Below are positions 3,649 through 64,000 of a DNA stretch of 64,000 bases, piece by piece. Under the pieces are notes generated by a model. That model had not been told where the DNA came from and searched no databases. It saw only the letters and a program-made list of their open reading frames with translations. Location: IMG/VR virus record IMGVR_UViG_3300045974_000166, positions 64,001-128,000 of that record. One strand, 5' to 3'. The DNA is from a virus. A program made the position numbers and the translations under genes. The number at the start of each line of letters is the position of its first letter. Within the stretch, counting starts at the first letter, position 1.

Positions 3649-5487
3649 ATGGCCACAAATCCTCTCATTGATCTAGATTTTGATCAGATTAAAACAGCTA
3701 TTATAGATTATATCAAGAACTCAAATTCGACGTTCACTGACTATAATTTTGAAGGTTCTGCTTTAAATTCTATCATAGACATTCTTGCATATAACACACA
3801 TACAAATGCGTACTATGCAAACATGCTGCATTCAGAAAGTTTCTTGGACACAGCTCAGAAAAGATCTTCTGTAGTTTCTCGTGCTAAAGAACTTGGGTAT
3901 ACACCAAAGTCTATTACTGGTTCAAATGCTTATATAAACATTTATACTACTGGTTTATCTAGCCAAAGTACAGTATTTTACATCCCCCGTGGTTCTGTGT
4001 TTACATCTTCTAATGAATCTGGATCTTATCAATTTTTAGCTAAAAATGATTATTTTTCTAAATTGGATGGTGTAAATGGTACTGGTAACCGTCACATTTT
4101 TTCAGATGTAAATCTAATTTCTGGTGTTTATCTATCCAATTCCTTTACGGTTGATATACTTTCTAACGTTCGGTCAATCTTTACTATTCCTAATGAATCT
4201 ATAGACACAAATACACTTCGCGTGTTTGTAAAAGATTCTGCAAATTCGGTTGAACGGACAGAATATAAACTTGCATCAAATGTTTTTGATGCAGAACGTG
4301 GTTCTTTAATCTATTACCTACAAGAATCTTATACTGGGAATTTTGAAATATTCTTTGGTGACAACATTCTTGGCAAACAACCAGTCAATGGAAATGTGAT
4401 TGAGATTGATTATTTTGCATCCGAAATGCCAGACTCTCCTAACGGCTGCAGATTCTTTGCTTCTGATATTACATTTGATGGTGGAGTGGGAGTTGCTTCT
4501 ATTGAAACTACTCAAGTTGCATTTGGTGGTTCTTATAAGGATCCTCTAGAAACTATTAGGTTTAATGCATTGAACACAAATATTTCTAAGAATCGCGCGG
4601 TCACTGCTTCGGATTATTCTACGCTTTTAATCTCAAACTTCTCATTCATTAAGTCTGTAAATTCTTGGGGTGGCGAGGATAATCTACCGCCAGTTTTCGG
4701 CAAAATTTTCTTATCTCTACAACCTGTAACCGGATTTACTATTTCTGATTCTGTTAAGAATTCTCAAATTTTACCTGTGATTAAGAAGAATTCTTTAGTT
4801 ACTATTACTCCAGAATTTGTTGATCCTGCATATACATTCTTGGAATTTACTACTAAAGCAAAGTATGTTAAAAACCGAACTCTACTTACTAAGTCTTTGA
4901 TAGAAAGTTATATCAGAGCTACAATCTCTACTTATGTTTCTAATATTTCTTCGTTCAATTCTGAGTATCTTCATTCACAGTTGATCAAGGAATGTTTGGC
5001 GATTGATGCATCAATCTCTTCTGTAGACATTAAAGTCAATATTGCAAAAAACATAGTACCTTATATCGGCGTAAGTACTACTTCTATGTTTAGTTTTAAT
5101 AACGAATTGACCGACGGTTCTATTACATCTACAAATTACTACATGATCTCCAATGGAGAAACCGTTCTTGTTTCACTGAAACAGATTCCTGGGTCATATT
5201 CGGATGCTATCAATACTATCCCTTTCATTGGCGCGTATAATTCAGACAACCAACTTATTAGAAATGTTGGGACAATAAATCTAAAAACTGGTGAAGTAAA
5301 TATCACAATCAATGTGTCGGCCTTTGTGACTTCTACAGTCAAGTTTGTAAAGTTAAAAGCTACTACATATGACTTAAATATATCAACTAAAAACAATCAA
5401 ATTTTAGCTCTAGATGCAAATCTTAAGGATGGTCCTTCTGGTCTAATTGACAACAATTATATTCTCGTAGAAGAATACTTAAAGTAA
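3649..5487 (+). CDS. gp6: Baseplate wedge subunit gp6
   Basis: LDFDQIK..FTDYNFEGSAL..LAYNTH..ESFLDTAQKRSSVVSRAKELGYTP; RAVTASDY. Confidence 0.92.
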   Translation: MATNPLIDLDFDQIKTAIIDYIKNSNSTFTDYNFEGSALNSIIDILAYNTHTNAYYANMLHSESFLDTAQKRSSVVSRAKELGYTPKSITGSNAYINIYTTGLSSQSTVFYIPRGSVFTSSNESGSYQFLAKNDYFSKLDGVNGTGNRHIFSDVNLISGVYLSNSFTVDILSNVRSIFTIPNESIDTNTLRVFVKDSANSVERTEYKLASNVFDAERGSLIYYLQESYTGNFEIFFGDNILGKQPVNGNVIEIDYFASEMPDSPNGCRFFASDITFDGGVGVASIETTQVAFGGSYKDPLETIRFNALNTNISKNRAVTASDYSTLLISNFSFIKSVNSWGGEDNLPPVFGKIFLSLQPVTGFTISDSVKNSQILPVIKKNSLVTITPEFVDPAYTFLEFTTKAKYVKNRTLLTKSLIESYIRATISTYVSNISSFNSEYLHSQLIKECLAIDASISSVDIKVNIAKNIVPYIGVSTTSMFSFNNELTDGSITSTNYYMISNGETVLVSLKQIPGSYSDAINTIPFIGAYNSDNQLIRNVGTINLKTGEVNITINVSAFVTSTVKFVKLKATTYDLNISTKNNQILALDANLKDGPSGLIDNNYILVEEYLK

Positions 5488-5496
5488 TCCTGCTCC

Positions 5497-7524
5497 ATGA
5501 TCAATTACCAAAATAGTGTAGTAGATAATTATCCTCTGTACCAAGCATTCATTGACTTATACTATGCATATGTAAAGCAAAGAAATGCTCCAGTTGGCGA
5601 GATAAATAATCATGCCGCTAAACTAGATCTTGATCGCGCACTTTCTTCTGAGATTGATAAATTTTATTCCGTATATGCTATTGATCTACCAAAGACTATA
5701 GCATATGACAAAAGAAATCTTGCAAAAATTCTAAATCAGATATATGAAGCTAAGGGAACCGAGAATTCTCTTAAATTATTGTTTCGTCTTATCTATAATG
5801 AAGACATTCAGATTTCATACCCAGTACAAAATATTCTAAAACCTTCAGATGGTAGATGGATAAAAGAACAATACTTTACCGCATATAAGTATTCTGGCAC
5901 ACCACCCATAGAAAACACAAGAATTGTTTTCTCAAATGAAAAGGGTGACTTTTCACTAATCGTTACTGGTGTAGAAATTATCAATGCCGATGTTTGTCGA
6001 ATTAGATTCTCATCTTTGAACCGAGTTAATTTACCTCTAGAACAAATAGTAACGGCTACAGATGGTGAGCATGTATATTTTATCGGTAAAGTTATCCCAT
6101 CACCAGATAAACTTAGAATTTTAAAGCCTGGTAAGTATTGGAAGAAGGGTAAAGCAATTGTTATACCTGGTTCTATTAGAAACACAGTAGCCGTTGTATC
6201 ATCTGTTTCAACTGGTGGTGTAATTACCGGTATAGAAATTTTGGAATATGGTATCGGCCACAATGAAAATCAAATTTCTATAATTTCTCCATTTCCAAGA
6301 AAGCCAACCGGCTCACTACAAGATCTATCTTTTCAAATTACTGCTATCAATACAGCGGCAATTGGTGCCGGCTTCACAAACCATCCCGGTGTTGTGTATC
6401 ATCACACTGTAAACATAGAAGATTATGTAGATGGTCTAGCAGACGAAGTAATCGGTATATCAGCTGGGTTTACTCATAATTCTTATTTTCTGTCTGACTA
6501 TTTGGCCGCAGATTATTTGGGTACAGAAGAAATTCATACAAATACTACATCCGTTAAAAGTATAGATAACGTTGGTAGAGATACAGACATTAGAACCTGG
6601 CAAGAATCTCTTGCACTTCTAATGTACGAACACGGCCCACTTGTCGATGTAAAGGGTAAATATTCTGGTGATGAAGGTCAACTTTCCAATCAGCTGATTA
6701 AAATACAGGATTCATATTTCTATCAGGCATTCTCATATCTTTTAGAAAGTATACAAGATCCAAAATTATATAAGAAAATGGCGGACCTGTTTCACCCAGC
6801 AGGCACCAAAAGATTCTCGGGATACATTAAACAAATAGATGAAGCTTTACAATATGAGTTCCGTAGAGCATTCTTAGTTGATACAATTGTTCTTCGTGAT
6901 CAGCAGACTTTCTTAGATGCAGATTCTTTGATATTTGTTAAGAAAGTAATCGACTCATCTACACCTGTTGATTCGATACGATATAAGATTGTAGTTAAAC
7001 AATTGACAGACTCTGTGACTCCAAATCCAGATGTCAAGATGAAGAATCTTACTAAGAATTTGTCAGAAATTACTACTTATATTGATGTCTATCAAAAGAC
7101 TATTTTTAAATCTTTTACATTAGATTCAGTTGTTCCAGCCGAAACTGAGTTCAATAAGGACCAAACAAAGTACTTTACTACTGACTTTGTGACTAGTAGT
7201 CACACAAACCCAATATCACTGAGTAAACCCCGCGTAGATACTACAACAATCACAGATCCCCAATACTCAAAAATCTTTGGTAAAGGTTTTACCGAACTTG
7301 AAACTATTGTTGAAACTAAACCAAAACTTACAACTAATAGAACATTAAATGAATTAGAAACTATATTAGAAGCATTTTCCAAAAATGCTGCCAAAAATAT
7401 TGCATCTGACTTAGTCACTATAGTTTCTACCGATTCCAATGGAACTCTCGTCGATGGCCGATGGGATGTATCTTATTCTATTGGCGATTACTCAGAACCA
7501 TACAAATATCTATCTTTTAGTTAG
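5497..7524 (+). CDS. gp7: Baseplate wedge initiator gp7-like
   Basis: YEAKGTENSLKLLFRLIYNE..NILKPSDGRW and KIQDSYFYQAFSY..HPAG motifs; lies between gp6 and gp8. Confidence 0.75.
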   Translation: MINYQNSVVDNYPLYQAFIDLYYAYVKQRNAPVGEINNHAAKLDLDRALSSEIDKFYSVYAIDLPKTIAYDKRNLAKILNQIYEAKGTENSLKLLFRLIYNEDIQISYPVQNILKPSDGRWIKEQYFTAYKYSGTPPIENTRIVFSNEKGDFSLIVTGVEIINADVCRIRFSSLNRVNLPLEQIVTATDGEHVYFIGKVIPSPDKLRILKPGKYWKKGKAIVIPGSIRNTVAVVSSVSTGGVITGIEILEYGIGHNENQISIISPFPRKPTGSLQDLSFQITAINTAAIGAGFTNHPGVVYHHTVNIEDYVDGLADEVIGISAGFTHNSYFLSDYLAADYLGTEEIHTNTTSVKSIDNVGRDTDIRTWQESLALLMYEHGPLVDVKGKYSGDEGQLSNQLIKIQDSYFYQAFSYLLESIQDPKLYKKMADLFHPAGTKRFSGYIKQIDEALQYEFRRAFLVDTIVLRDQQTFLDADSLIFVKKVIDSSTPVDSIRYKIVVKQLTDSVTPNPDVKMKNLTKNLSEITTYIDVYQKTIFKSFTLDSVVPAETEFNKDQTKYFTTDFVTSSHTNPISLSKPRVDTTTITDPQYSKIFGKGFTELETIVETKPKLTTNRTLNELETILEAFSKNAAKNIASDLVTIVSTDSNGTLVDGRWDVSYSIGDYSEPYKYLSFS

Positions 7525-7578: not shown

Positions 7579-8043
7579 ATGATTAATGACTCACTAAAAC
7601 CAACCGGCGAACTTCTAATTGTTCTTCGTGGCCCAGACGGCAAGATTAAAGAACAAAAGACCGTTCCTAACTTGATCGTCACCACTGGCAAAAATGCAAT
7701 TGCTTCACGTCTTGCTGGTGTTACTACCGGTGTGATGACTCACATGGCTCTCGGCACTAGTGCCGTGGCTGCTGATGTAGCACAAGCTAGCCTTGGCGTG
7801 TCAGAATTCACAGGCGGTTCTAATGTGCGTGCCGCTCTATCTGTTTCTGGTGGTTCTGTTTCTGGCAACCAGGTTACTTTCACTGCTACTTTTGCCGCTG
7901 GCAACTGTACTGGCGCTGTGACTGAAGCAGGTATTTTTAACGCCTCGACTGCCGGTATAATGTTAGCTCGTACAACATTTTTGCCAGTCAACAAAGATGC
8001 TTTGGACACGCTGACTATCTCTTGGATCGTGACTGTATCGTAA
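7579..8043 (+). CDS. Small virion structural protein (tail-collar/baseplate type)
   Basis: NLIVTTGKNAIASRL..THMALGT..VTEAGIFNASTAGIMLART..VNK motif, common in tail modules. Confidence 0.55.
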   Translation: MINDSLKPTGELLIVLRGPDGKIKEQKTVPNLIVTTGKNAIASRLAGVTTGVMTHMALGTSAVAADVAQASLGVSEFTGGSNVRAALSVSGGSVSGNQVTFTATFAAGNCTGAVTEAGIFNASTAGIMLARTTFLPVNKDALDTLTISWIVTVS

Positions 8044-8049
8044 TATAAA

Positions 8050-10140
8050 ATGTCTAATTCAATCAGAGCCGGCCTCCATTTTAGCGTCGCTGATACTATT
8101 CTCAAAGAGATTCAGTATCAGCGCTCTAACTATTTTTTCTTCCTTGGAAAGATTGACAAATGGAATGTAGATGATGTCTATGTTGACGCCAATCTGATTA
8201 ATTCTGATTATGAAAATAGTAATATTAGAACTAACATTCTATACATCAACAAGGTTTCTCCTACTGATGTGTCATTAGTTACGAAAAGAACACTTTGGAC
8301 TGCATCTACAGTTTATGATCAGTACGATCATACTAAAGATCTAAACACACTAACGTTCTTTGTAGTGACAGATGACTATAATGTTTACAAATGTCTTTCA
8401 AACAACAATAACGTTCCTTCTACTGTTAAACCGGTAGGAAAACCAACAATTCCTTTAAAACTTGCCGATGGATATATCTGGAAGTATATGTATGCAATTC
8501 CTTCTTTCAAGAAGTCGAAGTTCATGTCATATTCCTACATCCCTGTCCAAACTGCACTTTCTGATAGTTTTTATAACAACGGTTCCGTTGATGATGTAAT
8601 TGTCGAATATGGTGGTTCGGGTTATTCAGATACACCAAATGTGACAATCAGTTTAGCAGGTGCAGTTACCACAGGATCCGGAGCTACTGGCCACGTCACG
8701 GTTGATTCTTCTGGCCGTATTACTGGGATAGTAATAGACACAGGTGGTTCTGGATATACAGCGGGTGTTAGTCTTTCTGTTACTACTCTATCTGGAGCTG
8801 GTGCAGAACTTACACCTATCATTGCTGCTGGTGTTGTGACCGGAGCTAATATAGTTAGTGCTGGAATTTCTTATCAAAACGGAAATGTGATAAACTTTTC
8901 TCTTGGTGGTGCAATTTTAGTAGCAGGTGTGTCTCAAAGAATCTATGATGGTAGTTTAGCTTTTGTTTCTGGCGGCAGTATTACTAAGGTAACAATCGTT
9001 AATCCGGGTATTGGGTATGCTGTTGCACCAACACTCACGGTTGTTTCCGCTGATGCCTCAGGTACTGGAAAATATGGAGCTGGTTCTGCGTTACTTTCAT
9101 CTGTTGTATATCAAGGGAAAATTGTTCAGGTAAACATACTTGATTCTGGTATAAACTATGCTAATGGTATCGGCACCAATATTTCTGTATTTGGTGACGG
9201 TACTGGTGCTAAATTCACACCTGTTATCTATAACGGCTCTATTGTAGATGTGGTCGTAGATAATCCAGGCAAAGATTACTCAGAAGTTATAGTTTCAATC
9301 TCTGGTTCTACAGTAAATCCTGCTAAAATTACTCCCGTGTTGGCTTCATCTGACTTTTCTTCCGATCAATATATTATTGAACAGACTTCTGTTGCTGGTG
9401 CAATTTATGCAATTGTAATAACAAATCAGGGTACAAATTATACGGCCAATGCAGCTGTGAATGTTGTAGGTGATGGTACCGGAGCAATAGCTATACCAAC
9501 TGTGATAGATGGCAAAATTACTAAAATTACAATGACCAGCTATGGTCAAGACTATACTTATGCTAGTATTAGTATTACCGATGCTCTTCGTGCAGTTAAC
9601 ATAACCAATATAGATTTAGTATCATATGCTGTGATATCTCCAAAATATGGCCATGGTAGAGATGCGGTTCGCGAACTTAGTTCTTCTACAATTGCATTTA
9701 CGAATGTGATTAAGAAAGACCCATCTATTATTGATCTAGCTCAGGATTATAGATATTTTGGTCTTATAAAAAATCCAAAAAATATTCTTACTGGTGAGAT
9801 GATACGAGTTCAAAATAATGTTATAGCCCACTATGTTACCTTCACATCACATACTGGGTTGGTGATTGATGAAGTTCTTCTTAAGGCTGGTGCTAAATAC
9901 CGTGTTGTAAGTATTACAAATAATGATGTTGTTTTGCAACCGCTTGGTTCTGGATATATGACTTCAGCCGGTACCTACGTTGCAGAAACTAATTCTTCAA
10001 GAACTTATACAACTAGTGCAGTTTCTTATACTCCGGTCGTTGATAAATATTCTGGTGACTTACTCTTTGCCTCAGCAGAAAATCAATTTACATTTACAGC
10101 TGACCAGACATTCGTTATCAAAACTTTCCTAACAGTTTAA
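8050..10140 (+). CDS. gp8: Baseplate wedge subunit gp8 with inserted Gly-rich beta repeats
   Basis: YNVYKCLSNNN..STVKP..DGYIWKYMY and GHGRDAVREL..DYRYFGLIKNP motifs; central GGSGY/PGIGY/SGINY repeats. Confidence 0.85.
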   Translation: MSNSIRAGLHFSVADTILKEIQYQRSNYFFFLGKIDKWNVDDVYVDANLINSDYENSNIRTNILYINKVSPTDVSLVTKRTLWTASTVYDQYDHTKDLNTLTFFVVTDDYNVYKCLSNNNNVPSTVKPVGKPTIPLKLADGYIWKYMYAIPSFKKSKFMSYSYIPVQTALSDSFYNNGSVDDVIVEYGGSGYSDTPNVTISLAGAVTTGSGATGHVTVDSSGRITGIVIDTGGSGYTAGVSLSVTTLSGAGAELTPIIAAGVVTGANIVSAGISYQNGNVINFSLGGAILVAGVSQRIYDGSLAFVSGGSITKVTIVNPGIGYAVAPTLTVVSADASGTGKYGAGSALLSSVVYQGKIVQVNILDSGINYANGIGTNISVFGDGTGAKFTPVIYNGSIVDVVVDNPGKDYSEVIVSISGSTVNPAKITPVLASSDFSSDQYIIEQTSVAGAIYAIVITNQGTNYTANAAVNVVGDGTGAIAIPTVIDGKITKITMTSYGQDYTYASISITDALRAVNITNIDLVSYAVISPKYGHGRDAVRELSSSTIAFTNVIKKDPSIIDLAQDYRYFGLIKNPKNILTGEMIRVQNNVIAHYVTFTSHTGLVIDEVLLKAGAKYRVVSITNNDVVLQPLGSGYMTSAGTYVAETNSSRTYTTSAVSYTPVVDKYSGDLLFASAENQFTFTADQTFVIKTFLTV

Positions 10141-58594: not shown

Positions 58595-59221
58595 ATGAAA
58601 CCTAACAAACTGCCTCCAAAGGCATCACAGAAGCCTTTTGCTTCTATTCTCAAAAGTAAAGCCTTTGATATTTTTAAGTATTCTACTTATGTTGTACTTG
58701 CATTAGCAATTTTGAGTGGAATGATATATCTTGATGTGCCTAAACAACCTGTGGTCGTGCAAAAATCTACTCAAGAAACTGAGATATTTCTTTTGAGCAA
58801 AACTGCCTCTATCATTGCCCGCGATGGCGCTATTCCTTTAGAATTGGCCAAGAAATATGCACTATGGATTTATGAGGCTGCAGCCAAGTACTCTCTTGAT
58901 CCTGTACTACTACTTTCTGTGATGTACACTGAGTCTGGTTTTAACTATAAAGCAGTTTCTGCCTCTGGTCCCATTGGACTATTCCAAATTGCAGCATCAC
59001 AGCATAAAGACAAAACCACTTATGTAGCTCTATTTGATCCACATAACAATATTATGGTTGGTGCACAGATCATCAGAGAATATGCAGATCGATCTAAAAA
59101 TATGGTAGAAACTTTGCTACGTTATAGCGGCACATTGGGTGAACCACCAGACTATGCTAATAAGGTCCTAAATACCAAAAAGCGGTACGACAATGAAATT
59201 ATGAAAGCGATGGCACTATGA
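58595..59221 (+). CDS. Membrane-anchored lytic transglycosylase (SLT domain)
   Basis: TM segment YVVLALAILSGMIYL; SLT motif LLLSVMYTESGF..GLFQI..NIMVGAQII..Y. Confidence 0.85.
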   Translation: MKPNKLPPKASQKPFASILKSKAFDIFKYSTYVVLALAILSGMIYLDVPKQPVVVQKSTQETEIFLLSKTASIIARDGAIPLELAKKYALWIYEAAAKYSLDPVLLLSVMYTESGFNYKAVSASGPIGLFQIAASQHKDKTTYVALFDPHNNIMVGAQIIREYADRSKNMVETLLRYSGTLGEPPDYANKVLNTKKRYDNEIMKAMAL

Positions 59222-59403
59222 ATTACACTCTAGAGGTAAAAGAAGCAGAAAACGGAGAACTGTATATTGAGTTTCCGTCTGAGATGATGGAAGCGCTTGG
59301 CTGGGCAGCAGGTGACACTTTGAATTTTGCCGTACAAGATGATGGTTCTATAATCATTAAAAATTGTACATGCAATTTTCTGCGTGATATAATTAAATCT
59401 TAG
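59218..59403 (+). CDS. AbrB/MazE/SpoVT-like small DNA-binding protein
   Basis: GELYIEFPSEMMEALGWAAGDTLNFAVQDDGSIIIK. Confidence 0.75.
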   Translation: MNYTLEVKEAENGELYIEFPSEMMEALGWAAGDTLNFAVQDDGSIIIKNCTCNFLRDIIKS

Positions 59404-59465: not shown

Positions 59466-60527
59466 ATGATAGAAATCCCAAACGGTTTTAGTAGAGAACA
59501 AATTGCCGCGGCCATATCACCTCGGCATCTTCATTTAACACTATTGCCAACGGAGAAATGTAATTTTCGTTGTACATATTGTTATGAAACGTTCGAAAAT
59601 GGCCGGATGAGTGAAGACGTCGTACAAGGTGTAAAATCTTTAATTGAACATCGAGCTAAGGACGGCCTTGATCTATTATCAATATCGTGGTTCGGTGGGG
59701 AACCACTTTTAGCACCAACTGTTGTTTTAGATATTATTACACGCGTCAGAGAACTCAAGGAAAAATATAACTTTGCAGTCAAGGGTGGCTTTACCACAAA
59801 TGGTTACTTACTTACTAAACAACTAGCAACCGAGTTAATTCGACTAGATCAATGGTTTTTTCAAATATCACTTGATGGTTGGGAAACCACACATGATCAA
59901 ACTAGAGTATTGGTTAATGGTAACGGCACATTTGATACCATTTTTAAGAATTTAGTTGCAATGAAGGACATTAAACAAGATTTTAATGTGCAATTACGTC
60001 TTCATCAAACTACTCAAAATGAAGAATCTATGGAGAAGTTAGGGCGAGAATTATATAAAGTTTTTAATGGAGATGATAGATTTACGTATGATATTCAGGA
60101 CGTTCGTGACTTGGGCGGGGACAAAGGAAAGAATATTGAAAAGTTACCAAAAAATTATTTTGAAATTAGAAGAGATAAATTGATTGCCATACTTTTCCCA
60201 GAGAATTTAAGAAATTCTGTAGACAAACACCACGAAGAAATAAAGGGAAATCCAGTATCATATATTTGTTATGCATCAAAACCGAATCATTTTTTGATTA
60301 GGTCAACGGGAAGAATTGGTAAATGTACTGTTGCATTAGAGGATGAACGGAATGATATAGGCGAACTTCATATAGATGGATCAATGACATTCGATAACGA
60401 TTTGCTAATGCAATGGTCGAAGGGCTTTAATACATTTGATCAAAAGAATCTTGCGTGTCCAGCCTGGAAGGTTGAGATGCCAAAAACGAGCAAACGCATT
60501 ATTCCAATTGGCGTAGCTACAACCTAG
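59466..60527 (+). CDS. Radical SAM peptide maturase with SPASM/twitch-type C-terminus
   Basis: TEKCNFRCTYCYE (CxxxCxxC), WFGGEPLL, TTNGYLL, QISLDG; C-terminal CYA..GRIGKCTVAL..CPAW. Confidence 0.92.
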   Translation: MIEIPNGFSREQIAAAISPRHLHLTLLPTEKCNFRCTYCYETFENGRMSEDVVQGVKSLIEHRAKDGLDLLSISWFGGEPLLAPTVVLDIITRVRELKEKYNFAVKGGFTTNGYLLTKQLATELIRLDQWFFQISLDGWETTHDQTRVLVNGNGTFDTIFKNLVAMKDIKQDFNVQLRLHQTTQNEESMEKLGRELYKVFNGDDRFTYDIQDVRDLGGDKGKNIEKLPKNYFEIRRDKLIAILFPENLRNSVDKHHEEIKGNPVSYICYASKPNHFLIRSTGRIGKCTVALEDERNDIGELHIDGSMTFDNDLLMQWSKGFNTFDQKNLACPAWKVEMPKTSKRIIPIGVATT

Positions 60528-60533
60528 GTTGTA
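60518..60533. repeat. 16-bp perfect palindrome TACAACCTAGGTTGTA
   Basis: Read directly; centred on the rSAM stop codon. Confidence 0.8.
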
Positions 60534-60566
60534 ATAATTTAAATTGGCTTTTAAAGGAAAATAGAA

Positions 60567-60785
60567 ATGAAATTCTCAGTAAATAAATTCGGTAAAACTA
60601 TGTTGAATGACGAAATGCTTTCGTCGATTGAAGCTAATGTGTCATTGGCCACGGCCGGTGGCCAGACTACCACCAATTCTAAGAATTGCAGTAGTTCAAC
60701 AAATGAAGTGTGTAGAAACACCGGTGATTGTACTAACGCCAATAATACACTTGTTTGTACTGGCACCAAAGTACTCCCTCAGTAA
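60567..60785 (+). CDS. RiPP precursor peptide (double-Gly leader, Asn/Cys/Thr-rich core)
   Basis: Strong SD (AAGGAAAA); 32-aa leader ending ATAGG; 40-aa core with 4 Cys and 7 Asn. Confidence 0.85.
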   Translation: MKFSVNKFGKTMLNDEMLSSIEANVSLATAGGQTTTNSKNCSSSTNEVCRNTGDCTNANNTLVCTGTKVLPQ

Positions 60786-60816
60786 GTAGTAATTATTTAA
60801 AATAGTCTAGTTTAGA

Positions 60817-60844
60817 TTTTAGGGGAAACTAGTTTCCCCTAAAA
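60817..60844. repeat. 28-bp perfect palindrome TTTTAGGGGAAACTAGTTTCCCCTAAAA (hairpin/attenuator)
   Basis: Read directly; lies between the precursor and the exporter. Confidence 0.85.
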
Positions 60845-60852
60845 AGTATATT

Positions 60853-62976
60853 TTGAAATATAATTATGAGAACTTAATGTCTTTATCATTTGTCTTTGAT
60901 CATAAAAATAAATGGCCCAGTGTAAAAAGGCCATTCGTCCCATTACAAACAAATCAGGCAGAGTGTGGTGTAGTTGCCGCAACAGCACTTGCTTGGATGT
61001 ACGGTGTACGTGTTAGTTACTCTGCTCTTTTAAATGTTGCCGGTGGAGCAACTCGGGGTCTTACATTAAGTCAAGTAAGAAGTTTACTTCGTCGAACTGG
61101 ATTTCAATGTGAAGTATATACAAGTGATCCAGAAACAATAGCAAATCAGTCGGGTTGCTCAATAGTACTCAAAAAGACAGGACATTTTTTGACTTTGGGC
61201 CCGCTTACCAGATGGGGTACACGAGAAGTTTTTGACCCAGCATTCGGCTGGTCTAAAATTGGTGTGAAAGATCTTGCAGAAGCCATTGAACCATATTCAA
61301 TAGAAATACTGCCAATACAGTCGGGATGTAAACTTCCGTTGCACCCAAAATTCCCATGGAAGGAATTTTTGAAAGAAGTAATTAGTCAGCGAATGTTGAT
61401 TAAGACATTGCCGATTTTATTTGTTGCTCAATTAGTTGCCGTATTATTTCCTTTGCTATCTGCAAAGGCATTTGATTCTCAGTTCAATGCACCAACGCCT
61501 GGCCTACAATTAGCAGTATATATTGCTCTGGTAAGTGGCCTTGTTGGTACCGGAATTTCTTTAGTTGGTGGTTGGTTTAAATCTCAACTTAAAGCAGATT
61601 TGGTGGGTAGGTCAATCAATGACGCCGTCAAAAAAGTTTTTAATATAAAGTTATCATTTCTGAGAAATAAATCAACAAATTCGCTAATTGGACTAGTCAA
61701 TTCTGTGGAGACAATAACACAAGAGATTCTGAACATTGTATCCGACTCTGCGGTAACTCTTATATTAGCTTTAGCGGCCTTTGTGATGCTTATGAAGGCT
61801 TCACCGATAATAGGTTTAATGTCATTTGGTTTAATTTGCTTAAGATGGTTAATAGATGTTTCAACCTATAAACAAATGGAACGGCTGGGAGAAAAGCATT
61901 TTAAGAACAGTGTCAGAAGTAAGCTTATGGTTTCTGATATGCTCCGTGCTATTATCCCAATGAGAATTGGTGGTACACAGATGCAAGCAGCACAACTTAT
62001 AAATGTACAAACCAACCATCTGGTAGAATCAGAGTATGAACTCGACAAATACAAACAGAATATTAATTCCATAATAAGTGTTTTCACAGTCATTGATAGG
62101 TTGGTATTAATGTTGGTAGGTGCCGAACTTGTCCGTCAAAATCTCATAACGCTTGGAACACTAATTTCGTTGTCAATTTATCGTGAAATGGTAAATTCCG
62201 GGGTTGGAGCAATTTCCTCTCTCTATAGTTCGACACATATAGCAGCTGCATATTCTCTTTCTCTGGCTGATGTGTATAAAGAACAAGAGAACACAATAAT
62301 TATTCATAGATTACCCGAAGATGGAAGTCTTAAGATTGATAACATTGATCTTTCATATTCTGAGTTGTCTGAACCTGTTCTCGTTGGTTTATCTTTGGAT
62401 ATTAAAAGCGGAGAAAATGTAGTTATAACGGGCCCTAGTGGTGCCGGGAAATCAACACTTTTAAAAGCAATTGCTGGACAACTCATACCAACATGTGGCA
62501 CAATCAAATTTGGTGGTATTGAATCATCAGAAGACACAATACATTGCATTACGAAATATATTGGATTCGTAATGCAAGATGATAAATTGATCCCAGCCAC
62601 AGTTGGTGAAAATATTAGACTATATAGAAAAGTTGATGACTCTGATCTAATTACTGCAGCTAAAGCAGCTGAACTCCACGATTTTATAATGTCCCTTCCG
62701 ATGCGATATGAAACCCCGATTTCCGAAGATGAATCTTCGTTTTCTGGTGGTCAAAGACAGCGTATTCTGCTAGCAAGAGCTTTATATGGAAGTCCTCTTG
62801 CCTTGATTTTAGATGAAGCAACAAGCTTTTTAGATACTGAAACTGCACAAGCCGTCTCAAAAAATCTAAAATCTATGGGAATAACCCGCATACATTTTGC
62901 CCACAGAATGGAATCGATTGAAGCAGCTGACCGTGTTATTGACATTAGGACATGCTCGATGCCCACTCTTTATTAA
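60853..62976 (+). CDS. Peptidase C39-containing ABC transporter (PCAT); ATG 60877 is a likely alternative start
   Basis: QTNQAECG (C39 catalytic Cys), GHFLTL, TM domain, GPSGAGKST, FSGGQRQR, LILDEATS, FAHR. Confidence 0.93.
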   Translation: MKYNYENLMSLSFVFDHKNKWPSVKRPFVPLQTNQAECGVVAATALAWMYGVRVSYSALLNVAGGATRGLTLSQVRSLLRRTGFQCEVYTSDPETIANQSGCSIVLKKTGHFLTLGPLTRWGTREVFDPAFGWSKIGVKDLAEAIEPYSIEILPIQSGCKLPLHPKFPWKEFLKEVISQRMLIKTLPILFVAQLVAVLFPLLSAKAFDSQFNAPTPGLQLAVYIALVSGLVGTGISLVGGWFKSQLKADLVGRSINDAVKKVFNIKLSFLRNKSTNSLIGLVNSVETITQEILNIVSDSAVTLILALAAFVMLMKASPIIGLMSFGLICLRWLIDVSTYKQMERLGEKHFKNSVRSKLMVSDMLRAIIPMRIGGTQMQAAQLINVQTNHLVESEYELDKYKQNINSIISVFTVIDRLVLMLVGAELVRQNLITLGTLISLSIYREMVNSGVGAISSLYSSTHIAAAYSLSLADVYKEQENTIIIHRLPEDGSLKIDNIDLSYSELSEPVLVGLSLDIKSGENVVITGPSGAGKSTLLKAIAGQLIPTCGTIKFGGIESSEDTIHCITKYIGFVMQDDKLIPATVGENIRLYRKVDDSDLITAAKAAELHDFIMSLPMRYETPISEDESSFSGGQRQRILLARALYGSPLALILDEATSFLDTETAQAVSKNLKSMGITRIHFAHRMESIEAADRVIDIRTCSMPTLY

Positions 62977-62977
62977 A

Positions 62978-63006
62978 TTTACACATATTGTTTGATGTGA
63001 TATAAT
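62978..63006 (+). promoter_or_regulatory. Near-consensus sigma70 promoter TTTACA-17-TATAAT with extended -10 TG
   Basis: TTTACA 62978-83, TG 62998-99, TATAAT 63001-06. Confidence 0.8.
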
Positions 63007-63035
63007 GAACTATGTTCCAGAATACTAAATGTAAT

Positions 63036-64000
63036 ATGTTTAAAAAGACTTTGGTCAGTTTATCAAGTATTTTTTTCTTAAACAGCTTTTCACATGCACA
63101 GACAGATACGAACCAGCCCAAATCATTGGTGCTGCAACAATCTTCAGTGCCAAGCGACTGGGTTCACTCCTCAGAACTAGTGCCGTTGAATGCACTTCAC
63201 TCGGATCTCAAATATGAAATTGCTTCCGCGGCTTCATCAACAATTGTTCCAAGTAAGTACATAACCCGAGTCTCAACATTTCATGATCGCAATGCTTTGT
63301 ATGTTGAAATCAACGCGATAGACCCAACCCCAGATAAGATCATTGCTGCTAACGGAGTTCATGACACCGTAACAGTGGGTGATAAGGTTCAGTTATTTGT
63401 AGACCCATTGGGTACTGGTCGTAGGGCATATGTCTTTACTGTATCTGCCTCTGGTTCAACCGGTGATCAGATCATTAGTTCTGTTGGGGAAGCTTCCCCA
63501 AATTGGAATGGTCAATGGGAATCTAGTACAAAACGTACTAGTACCGGATATACGGTAAGGTATCGCATACCATTTCAAACAATAGAAGTTCAAGAAAACT
63601 CAAAAGACATAGCAATAAATGTTAATCGTTCCATAGGATATGGCCAGCGTGAAGTATTAAGTTGGGCTCCAGTTGACGTCCATCTTTCATGTGAGGTGTG
63701 TCAGTTTGAACATTTTAAACTTGATGATTTACAAGCACAAGAATCACAATTGCTATTGTCACCATATATTGTATCACGATATATTCAACAAACTGGTAAA
63801 AGTACTACTAAAGAAACTTACACAGGTTTAGATATGCAATGGTCAAAAAATGGGAACAAAATCATTGGAACAATTCGACCAGACTATTTGCAACTAGATT
63901 TTGATTCATTTCAAATTACAACCAATAGAAGATATGCAATTAATCTCACGGAAAATAGACCATTTTTCACACAAGACAGAGGCCCTTTTAACACAGAGAT
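63036..64000 (+). CDS. Secreted/outer-membrane protein (DUF5916-like: CBM9-type N-domain plus beta-barrel), 3'-truncated; not in the ORF track
   Basis: Hand translation is open to the window end: signal peptide MFKKTLVSLSSIFFLNSFSHA-, DKVQLFVDPLGTGRRAYVF, WNGQWES..YRIPF, RPDYLQLDFD..ENRPFF. Confidence 0.7.
   Translation, partial: MFKKTLVSLSSIFFLNSFSHAQTDTNQPKSLVLQQSSVPSDWVHSSELVPLNALHSDLKYEIASAASSTIVPSKYITRVSTFHDRNALYVEINAIDPTPDKIIAANGVHDTVTVGDKVQLFVDPLGTGRRAYVFTVSASGSTGDQIISSVGEASPNWNGQWESSTKRTSTGYTVRYRIPFQTIEVQENSKDIAINVNRSIGYGQREVLSWAPVDVHLSCEVCQFEHFKLDDLQAQESQLLLSPYIVSRYIQQTGKSTTKETYTGLDMQWSKNGNKIIGTIRPDYLQLDFDSFQITTNRRYAINLTENRPFFTQDRGPFNTE

Follow-up and report, generated by a model that had tools for sequence, protein, structure and literature searches.

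A predicted radical SAM peptide pathway with its own export components in the genome of a T4-like phage

The IMG/VR virus record IMGVR_UViG_3300045974_000166 is a metagenome-derived genome of 192,097 bp, of which bases 64001-128000, a stretch of 64,000 nucleotides that we call the window, are analysed here. Towards the right-hand end of the window, and running beyond it, lie four co-oriented genes on the + strand that encode a radical S-adenosylmethionine (radical SAM) enzyme, a short precursor peptide, a peptidase-containing ATP-binding cassette transporter (PCAT) and a predicted outer-membrane beta-barrel protein (Table 1). Together they form a block of 5.8 kb with about 5.7 kb of open frame; the last gene crosses the end of the window and was completed from the fetched continuation of the same phage genome (L001), in which it occupies positions 5012-7204. 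A first-pass annotation of the window had proposed that these genes constitute a coherent pathway for a ribosomally synthesised and post-translationally modified peptide (RiPP). That proposal has held up, in that all four open reading frames (ORFs) are intact, equivalent four-gene sets recur in bacteria and the leader of the precursor co-folds with the radical SAM enzyme. The reading that we favour, and regard as probable, is of a self-contained and horizontally acquired RiPP cassette, standing at the start of the + strand early region of a T4-like phage of lytic type that infects a Gram-negative host.

Table 1. Features of the cassette and its junctions (window positions unless marked as genome or L001 positions)
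Feature	Position	Strand	Basis or context
Radical SAM peptide maturase, 353 aa (predicted)	59466..60527	+	Pfam, NCBIfam, alignment A1, structure model
Precursor peptide, 72 aa	60567..60785	+	ORF, alignment A4, co-fold
PCAT, 707 aa (TTG 60853) or 699 aa (ATG 60877)	60853..62976	+	Pfam, NCBIfam, PHROG, alignment A5
Putative outer-membrane barrel gene, 730 or 722 aa	63012/63036 to genome 129204 (window end 64000)	+	CBM9_1, fold, signal peptide
Promoter-like TGTACA-17-TATAAT	59365..59393	+	Left junction; within the 3' end of the AbrB-like gene, 72 nt before the radical SAM start
Perfect 12-bp hairpin with T-rich tail	60817..60844	+	Directly 3' of the precursor stop codon
Early-promoter cassette TTTACA-17-TATAAT	62978..63006	+	One base after the PCAT stop codon; extended phage consensus
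Promoter cassette	L001 7205-7233	+	Right junction; directly 3' of the barrel stop codon

The first gene product matches the Pfam model Radical_SAM (PF04055) at 56.6 bits against a cut-off of 29.5 (E 4.8e-15), and its CX3CX2C motif (C32, C36 and C39) is invariant in a family alignment of 26 members (A1). It had been annotated as a radical SAM/SPASM enzyme, of which the first half stands but the second does not; a SPASM domain carries a seven-cysteine motif (CX9-15GX4C ... CX2CX5CX3C ... C), and the conserved C-terminal cysteines of the 26 members number three, C268-x13-G-x4-C287 and C331 within a GCP motif. Judged by these residues, the C-terminal domain is Twitch-like, with the pattern of a single auxiliary cluster and not of a full SPASM domain. 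An N-terminal RiPP recognition element (RRE) of the PqqD-like type is absent, since the protein starts about 30 residues before CX3CX2C and its alignments begin at position 80 of TIGR04463 and residue 99 of CteB, and the cassette contains no separate RRE gene. The top NCBIfam matches (TIGR04463, PapB, Clo7bot and CefB) are all maturases of Cys-rich peptides or thioether maturases, and CteB is the best solved relative in a profile search of the PDB (4.8e-24). CteB is also the top fold match (Foldseek 1e-14) of an AlphaFold model with a confidence (pLDDT) of 86, followed by anSME, ChlB and SkfB, and SuiB is a further neighbour. Four bacterial members of the family fall, like the phage protein, below every NCBIfam cut-off and, because all five score so far beneath these thresholds, we conclude that NCBIfam has no model for the family; a literature search found no description of this RRE-less radical SAM family.

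The second gene encodes a 72-aa precursor with a double-glycine leader and a core rich in Cys and Asn, just as first described. The leader comprises residues 1-32 and ends in ATAGG (residues 28-32), with the Gly31-Gly32 site at its boundary, while the 40-aa core contains Cys41, Cys49, Cys55 and Cys64, each with an Asn three or four residues upstream. The phage precursor is recognised by no Pfam or NCBIfam model, and searches with eight bacterial counterparts gave no credible NCBIfam match. Small ORFs adjoining the homologous radical SAM genes form a clear family, defined by the leader pattern I-D-x3-I-x5-G-x-V-x-L-x-D-x2-L. When the phage precursor is aligned with 13 bacterial counterparts (A4), N37, C41, C49 and N51 are invariant and N46 and C55 nearly so; across these 14 sequences, Cys and the Asn three to four residues upstream are the sole invariant positions of the core. 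A GG or GA site is present in precursors encoded beside a PCAT, and several precursors without a PCAT lack such a site. The phage precursor retains all of these family features: the leader pattern, the GG site and the N/C core. NxxcB is known to link Asn C-beta to Cys by a thioether (PMC9389541), and Cys-Asn thioether cross-links are the modification of the mature peptide that would most likely fit the conserved core.

The predicted structure of the enzyme together with its precursor suggests how the two might meet. Their co-fold, built from the alignments of both families, gave an interface score (ipSAE) of 0.81, compared with 0.00 for the best of three controls, with three runs agreeing in at least 41% of contacts and a partner pLDDT of at least 48; in calibration, the mark was reached by 58 of 80 solved complexes and by two of 110 mismatched pairs. 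Leader residues 1-28 are placed against residues 2-22, 59-70, 273-276 and 305-322 of the enzyme, which supports a model in which the leader binds the radical SAM protein directly, without an RRE. Between the precursor and the exporter genes, the hairpin listed in Table 1 has a folding energy of -19.8 kcal/mol (z = -3.58), and none of 200 shuffled sequences was as stable; it could be an attenuator or an RNA-stabilising element that favours the precursor over the exporter transcript.

The exporter has the architecture of a PCAT, that is, a C39 peptidase, an exporter domain with six transmembrane segments and a nucleotide-binding domain. Pfam recognises Peptidase_C39 (PF03412; 43.9 bits, cut-off 22), ABC_membrane (33 bits) and ABC_tran (112 bits), the NCBIfam model NHLM_micro_ABC1 aligns with the protein end to end, although below its cut-off, and PHROG 2392 matches it at 1.8e-109. 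The catalytic Cys and His and the ABC motifs had been called intact, and closer inspection agrees: in alignment A5, Q24, C30, H103 and P121 of the C39 domain are invariant and D120 is found in six of seven sequences, and the nucleotide-binding motifs GPSGAGKST, FSGGQRQR and LILDEATS are readable. A phmmer search of the PDB with the C39 domain alone gave no match. The first-pass annotation saw no HlyD or TolC in the window, and this now extends to the whole 192-kb genome, in which neither HlyD_3 nor OEP/TolC found a match. It likewise reported no visible immunity gene, and there is none in the phage cassette or in the bacterial ones; the AbrB-like gene and the small ORFs 3' of the block were considered as cassette or immunity genes and rejected, being kept in relatives that have no cassette.

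The product of the fourth gene, for which Met9 at 63036 is the likelier start, opens with a hydrophobic signal peptide that ends in SHA ahead of Q, followed by a disordered stretch, a CBM9-like beta-sandwich and some 25 modelled strands over residues 246-728 (pLDDT 78), and its C-terminus reads KFVKVF. The features expected of a Gram-negative outer-membrane beta-barrel are all present: a signal peptide, a large barrel and a beta-signal with a terminal aromatic residue (Phe). It had been described as a DUF5916-like protein with a signal peptide, which is sustained by the signal peptide, the fold and the homologues, but not by any direct Pfam match, CBM9_1 (30.6 bits) being the only domain recognised and DUF5916 (PF19313) giving no match at E <= 0.01. 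We place it tentatively with DUF5916 on the basis of its homologues and its fold. Homologues at 22-27% identity have both DUF5916 and CBM9_1, and the model reaches a template modelling (TM) score of 0.85 against a cluster of the ESM Atlas in which DUF5916 accounts for 99% and CBM9_1 for 64%; its resemblance to the solved barrels MtrB, FimD, LptD and BtuB is weak (TM at most 0.4). The phage protein shares both fold and domain order with DUF5916 and CBM9_1 proteins at large, but ordinary members of that group are unlinked to radical SAM or PCAT genes. No papers mentioning DUF5916 were found in a literature search.

The genome that carries the cassette is clearly T4-like in its structural genes, with T4-type portal, sheath, gp23-like head protein and long tail fibre genes (phrog_213, phrog_23 and phrog_138; E 1e-121 to 1e-173). 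No integrase match was found in its 192 kb and, as part of the favoured reading, the carrier would be strictly of lytic type and its host Gram-negative, which we hold to be rather likely. The nearest capsid protein among GenBank phages, at 61% identity, belongs to a Synechococcus phage, but a cyanobacterial host was rejected, as psbA is also without a match in the genome. CheckV gives the record a completeness of 100%. Its ends (1-237 and 191861-192097) repeat one another over about 230 bp with a small indel, and it is for this reason that IMG/VR classes the record as 'linear' in spite of the CheckV value. The radical SAM gene of the cassette is the only one in the genome.

The first-pass annotation placed the block in continuous phage sequence after primase, nrdJ, GIY-YIG, SLT and AbrB genes, and that order is seen: a helicase, a primase, an NrdJ-type reductase, a SegE-like GIY-YIG endonuclease, an SLT transglycosylase and an AbrB/MazE-fold protein lie 5' of the cassette. 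Among 77 IMG/VR contigs with a related NrdJ, none contains any of the four cassette genes. The closest of these, L179 (NrdJ and helicase both 93% identical), matches the phage in gene order on both flanks, but in L179 the AbrB gene directly adjoins a small gene, orf63, whose phage counterpart, 95% identical, lies 3' of the barrel gene. Phage sequence resumes on both sides of the block in an order that is also seen in L136 and L177. The block is an insertion relative to the closest known relatives of the phage.

Both ends of this insertion coincide with a promoter cassette. The pattern T(T/G)TACA-17-TATAAT occurs in 36 copies across the genome, against 0.3 expected by chance, within an extended consensus AATTTACACATAAT...GTATAAT-AAACCATCTTCT, and its strand layout is regular, with all copies on the minus strand at 25.8-60 kb and all on the plus strand at 123-185 kb. 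The junction alignment (A3) shows a single promoter cassette at the site in L179 and one at each end of the block in the phage; it is the left-junction copy that aligns with the cassette of L179, and this copy is the first + strand promoter cassette of the right-hand early region. The copy that follows the PCAT gene would give the barrel gene a phage promoter of its own. The AbrB-like gene (59218-59403) has a C-terminal extension relative to its L179 homologue, which reads through the left-junction promoter and is apparently a by-product of the insertion. Further 3' of the cassette lie genes for a PnuC-type nicotinamide riboside/nicotinamide mononucleotide transporter (L001 14059-14637; Pfam E 1.9e-46), two metallophosphoesterases and an AAA_33 kinase-like protein, all of which are also kept in relatives without the cassette.

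In composition the cassette has come to resemble the phage. Its genes have a GC content of 0.36-0.40 and a third-position GC content (GC3) of 0.27-0.40, where the mean GC content of phage ORFs is 0.414 +/- 0.042 and the genes of the homologous bacterial operon have a GC content of 0.49-0.56. In relative synonymous codon usage (RSCU), the correlation of the cassette is 0.785 with the remainder of the phage and -0.095 with that operon. A fully ameliorated composition speaks for long residence without decay.

The likely source of the cassette lies among bacteria. Several thousand bacterial proteins are homologous to the radical SAM enzyme, with identities of about 40-49%, and they are distributed over Pseudomonadota, Actinomycetota, Cyanobacteriota, Bacillota and Acidobacteriota. 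A metagenome-assembled genome of Pseudomonadota, KLAP67 (L002/L003/L052), has the gene order of the phage, running from a radical SAM enzyme through a peptide of 86 aa and a PCAT to a DUF5916 protein, with the PCAT and DUF5916 genes overlapping in L002/L052. A second lineage, L224 (G091:C253, 1-5911), has these components in a different order: a radical SAM gene, an 85-aa precursor with GG leader and four Cys, a DUF5916-like barrel and then a PCAT. Because such homologous four-gene sets occur in bacteria, we treat the four phage genes as one module. The L002/L052 and L224 operons share with the phage the same four components, and their precursors the leader motif, the GG/GA site and the N/C pattern of the core, at identities of 46% for the radical SAM enzyme, 35% for the precursor, 29% for the PCAT and 28% for the barrel; they differ in being chromosomal and of higher GC content, and the phage copy differs in having a barrel gene that is not coupled to the PCAT gene and is furnished with a phage promoter. 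Other members of the family have the radical SAM gene with HlyD and a PCAT (L004 and L006), or no exporter nearby.

In a quick maximum-likelihood tree the phage enzyme is sister to that of L002 with an approximate likelihood-ratio (SH-aLRT) support of 92, and both fall within a PCAT-linked proteobacterial clade (97); the long branches of this tree mean that no recent donor is identified. Acquisition from Gram-negative bacteria belongs to the reading that we favour and shares its standing as the probable course of events. When the PCAT was used in a large protein search, generic ABC transporters dominated the matches, and these gave no information on donors. The closest relative of the barrel, at 67% identity, is encoded on a 3.1-kb contig (L132, JGI 3300038404) of 52% GC that is cut at the start of the gene and has a VF530 gene 3' of it; these features make a bacterial source probable, and the contig may stem from a lineage nearer to the donor than L002 is. 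A metagenome scan seeded with the phage barrel and this relative returned a single distant match. At many bacterial loci of the family (L007, L008/L009, L058/L062, L064 and L065) two different precursor genes flank a single radical SAM homologue, with no GG site and no PCAT, which suggests that these systems may use another route of release.

A search of phage databases for the same cluster, as the first-pass annotation had recommended, disclosed no other carrier in INPHARED, in IMG/VR or among the 77 related contigs. The cassette and its left flank had no megablast match in INPHARED, tblastn of the PCAT and radical SAM proteins against phage records gave merely distant or doubtful 'phage' records, and single-protein scans of IMG/VR with the radical SAM enzyme and with the barrel were without a match; no other virus contig with the cassette was found in these IMG/VR and phage-record searches. 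The IMG/VR contigs L007-L010 were considered as further phage carriers and rejected. L009 looks bacterial, and L010, an IMG/VR provirus from an isolate genome and an example of the predicted proviruses that contain related radical SAM genes, encodes a radical SAM homologue of 42% identity (7977-8963) beside genes for the small and large terminase, a portal protein and an LXG/EndoU toxin, but is a prophage with no PCAT, barrel or obvious Cys-rich precursor near that homologue.

In proposing how the cassette might operate, we envisage that host RNA polymerase would, early in infection, start transcription at two promoters, the one within the 3' part of the AbrB-like gene serving the radical SAM, precursor and PCAT genes and a separate one serving the barrel gene. 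The RRE-less, Twitch-type enzyme would receive the leader in a groove to which its N-terminal segment, the helix at residues 59-70 and the C-terminal domain all contribute, and would cross-link the core, most likely through thioethers between Cys sulphur and Asn C-beta at N-x(2-3)-C motifs, in chemistry of the NxxcB or ranthipeptide type. The PCAT would then cut after Gly31-Gly32 and move a product of about 40 residues across the inner membrane, and the DUF5916-type barrel would provide the outer-membrane step in place of HlyD and TolC. We favour this role for the barrel because the phage has no HlyD or TolC, because the barrel recurs with radical SAM and PCAT genes in two bacterial lineages, and because other members of the family use HlyD. 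The peptide could possibly be a signal, a toxin directed at competitors, or an effector of the envelope or of superinfection. A bolder version, in which the doomed host of a strictly lytic T4-like phage is made to secrete the cross-linked peptide by a two-membrane route of the phage's own PCAT and DUF5916 protein, for use outside the cell as signal or weapon, we consider speculative and unlikely.

Several observations weigh against the favoured reading or limit its detail. The best NCBIfam score of the radical SAM enzyme is 127 bits against a cut-off of 525, and every equivalog cut-off (340-600) is missed; without the SPASM cysteines and an RRE, its chemistry is not readable from family membership. 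A segment of 30-50 aa with a GESAxSRR motif, present in most bacterial homologues, is missing from the phage enzyme, and ribosome-binding sites before the radical SAM, PCAT and barrel genes are weak. The co-fold score may partly reflect solved complexes of leaders with radical SAM enzymes, such as that of ChlB (9GM3). RSCU of the cassette, for all its likeness to the phage, correlates with it about 3 standard deviations below random sets of phage genes. It is gene linkage that speaks for the barrel's part in export, and none of three sampled neighbourhoods of ordinary DUF5916 genes contained a radical SAM or PCAT gene, nor was there one near P0127, which is 32% identical to the phage barrel. 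Finally, the cassette is carried by a single phage genome, assembled from a metagenome.

That last point bears on whether the block belongs to the phage at all, and chimeric assembly with host DNA was among the circumstances that the first-pass annotation had named as fatal to its proposal. A fusion of host or other bacterial DNA to the phage by mis-assembly would suit the metagenomic origin of the record and its 'linear' class, as well as the restriction of cassette homologues to bacteria with no close match in INPHARED or IMG/VR. We nevertheless think such a fusion very unlikely, because phage sequence lies on both sides in the order of cassette-less relatives (L179, L136 and L177), because both junctions are the phage's own promoter cassette, with a third copy of extended consensus inside the block, and because GC, GC3 and codon usage fit the phage and not the homologous bacterial operon. 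If the cassette is truly in the phage, it might still be a neutral or decaying passenger that now yields no product; its occurrence in one genome and absence from all 77 related contigs, the lost segment of the radical SAM enzyme and the weak ribosome-binding sites are what would be expected of one. A passenger would hardly be expected, however, to keep all four ORFs open over some 5.7 kb with each catalytic motif checked intact, every invariant family position in the precursor and a confidently modelled radical SAM enzyme, nor to show fully ameliorated composition and a barrel gene that has gained a consensus phage promoter, and we judge this explanation improbable.

The remaining alternatives accept a functional cassette and differ over what it makes and where the product acts. 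The peptide might not be released as such but act in the infected cell's envelope, either on the DUF5916 barrel or jointly with it. It could, for instance, obstruct or gate the barrel, hide a receptor or prevent superinfection; the barrel would then be target or partner and not the exit duct. T4-like phages do encode superinfection-exclusion proteins that act at the envelope. Such an action would accord with the barrel's own promoter and N-terminal CBM9-like binding domain, with the absence of immunity genes from phage and bacterial cassettes alike, and with the expectation that, lacking HlyD/TolC as a partner, a PCAT would release its cargo into the periplasm. The L004 and L006 cassettes, however, use HlyD-type partners for precursors of the same family, which fits interchangeable export routes better than a dedicated pairing of peptide and barrel, and action confined to the envelope seems to us unlikely. 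As to the product, the radical SAM enzyme might instead install alpha-thioethers (sactionine links), C-C or ether cross-links, or epimerise residues of the core. Its scores below the cut-off of every curated family leave room for this, its structural neighbours include anSME, ChlB (9GM3), SkfB and SuiB besides CteB, and Twitch-type enzymes catalyse varied reactions. Set against these points are the core of the 14 precursors, whose sole invariant positions are Cys and the Asn upstream of it, the thioether-forming nature of the closest sequence relatives, and the precedent of NxxcB; another chemistry is a serious but still somewhat unlikely prospect, and we retain Asn-Cys thioethers as the working proposal.

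Were the bolder version of our proposal true, the secreted peptide could report phage density to other infections or remove competitors, and virulent phages that infect Gram-negative bacteria would join those with peptide communication or warfare of their own; a first function would also follow for DUF5916 and for a large and unnamed family of RRE-less radical SAM RiPP systems. Among phage genomes derived from virions, biosynthetic clusters are very rare and almost solely found in temperate phages, where they arm the lysogen, and the present case raises the question of what a virus would gain from a secreted, modified peptide when its host is dead after a single cycle.

The components and the insertion have several known analogues. 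The phage enzyme resembles the CteB, PapB, NxxcB and SkfB maturases in combining a CX3CX2C core with a C-terminal auxiliary-cluster domain and in adjoining a Cys-rich precursor gene, and the N-x(2-3)-C motifs of that precursor recall NxxcA. It differs from CteB-type maturases in having no N-terminal RRE and three C-terminal cysteines instead of seven, in the predicted docking of the leader directly on the enzyme body, and in belonging to a family that is mainly proteobacterial and actinobacterial, not clostridial or streptococcal. Searching the literature for proteobacterial ranthipeptides with GG leaders, we found no description of the four-gene cassette. A large family of enzymes and precursors for which we found no name is one of the new elements here, and the recurrent linkage of DUF5916 to a radical SAM and PCAT system offers what would be the first functional lead for that domain.

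The insertion itself is reminiscent of gene shuffling at early promoter stem-loop (PeSL) elements, sites of recombination at which T4-like phages are documented to acquire and lose genes (PMC2839356, PMC4122927). Here, too, the inserted DNA is bracketed by short early-promoter copies in a variable region of small early genes, and a close relative, L179, has a single copy at the empty site. The phage elements differ from PeSLs in being promoter cassettes that abut the upstream stop codon, with the terminator stem-loop half not found at either junction, and a cargo of four genes and about 5.8 kb is large for such events. The site offers a clean example of the insertion of a four-gene cargo at a T4-type promoter cassette.

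The first-pass annotation knew of no characterised system like this in a T4-like phage, which stands in so far as we found no other virus contig with the cassette, but which has to be narrowed, since bacteriocin clusters borne by phages are already on record, chiefly for temperate ones. When 10,063 phage genomes were surveyed, 69 proved to carry biosynthetic clusters; 64 of these phages were temperate and five lytic, and the prophage-encoded clusters were nearly all classed as bacteriocins, with some glycocins and lanthipeptides (Dragos et al., bioRxiv 10.1101/2020.10.01.322628). Because such clusters are already known, the novelty of the present case lies in the lytic T4-like carrier and the type of cassette, and not in the idea of a phage-encoded peptide. 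The known examples, such as sublancin of the Bacillus subtilis prophage, have in common with it a ribosomal-peptide pathway on a phage genome. What appears new, on the gene content described above, is a radical SAM RiPP pathway that brings its own putative parts for export across two membranes, including its own outer-membrane protein, in a T4-like phage with no integrase match and a presumably Gram-negative host.

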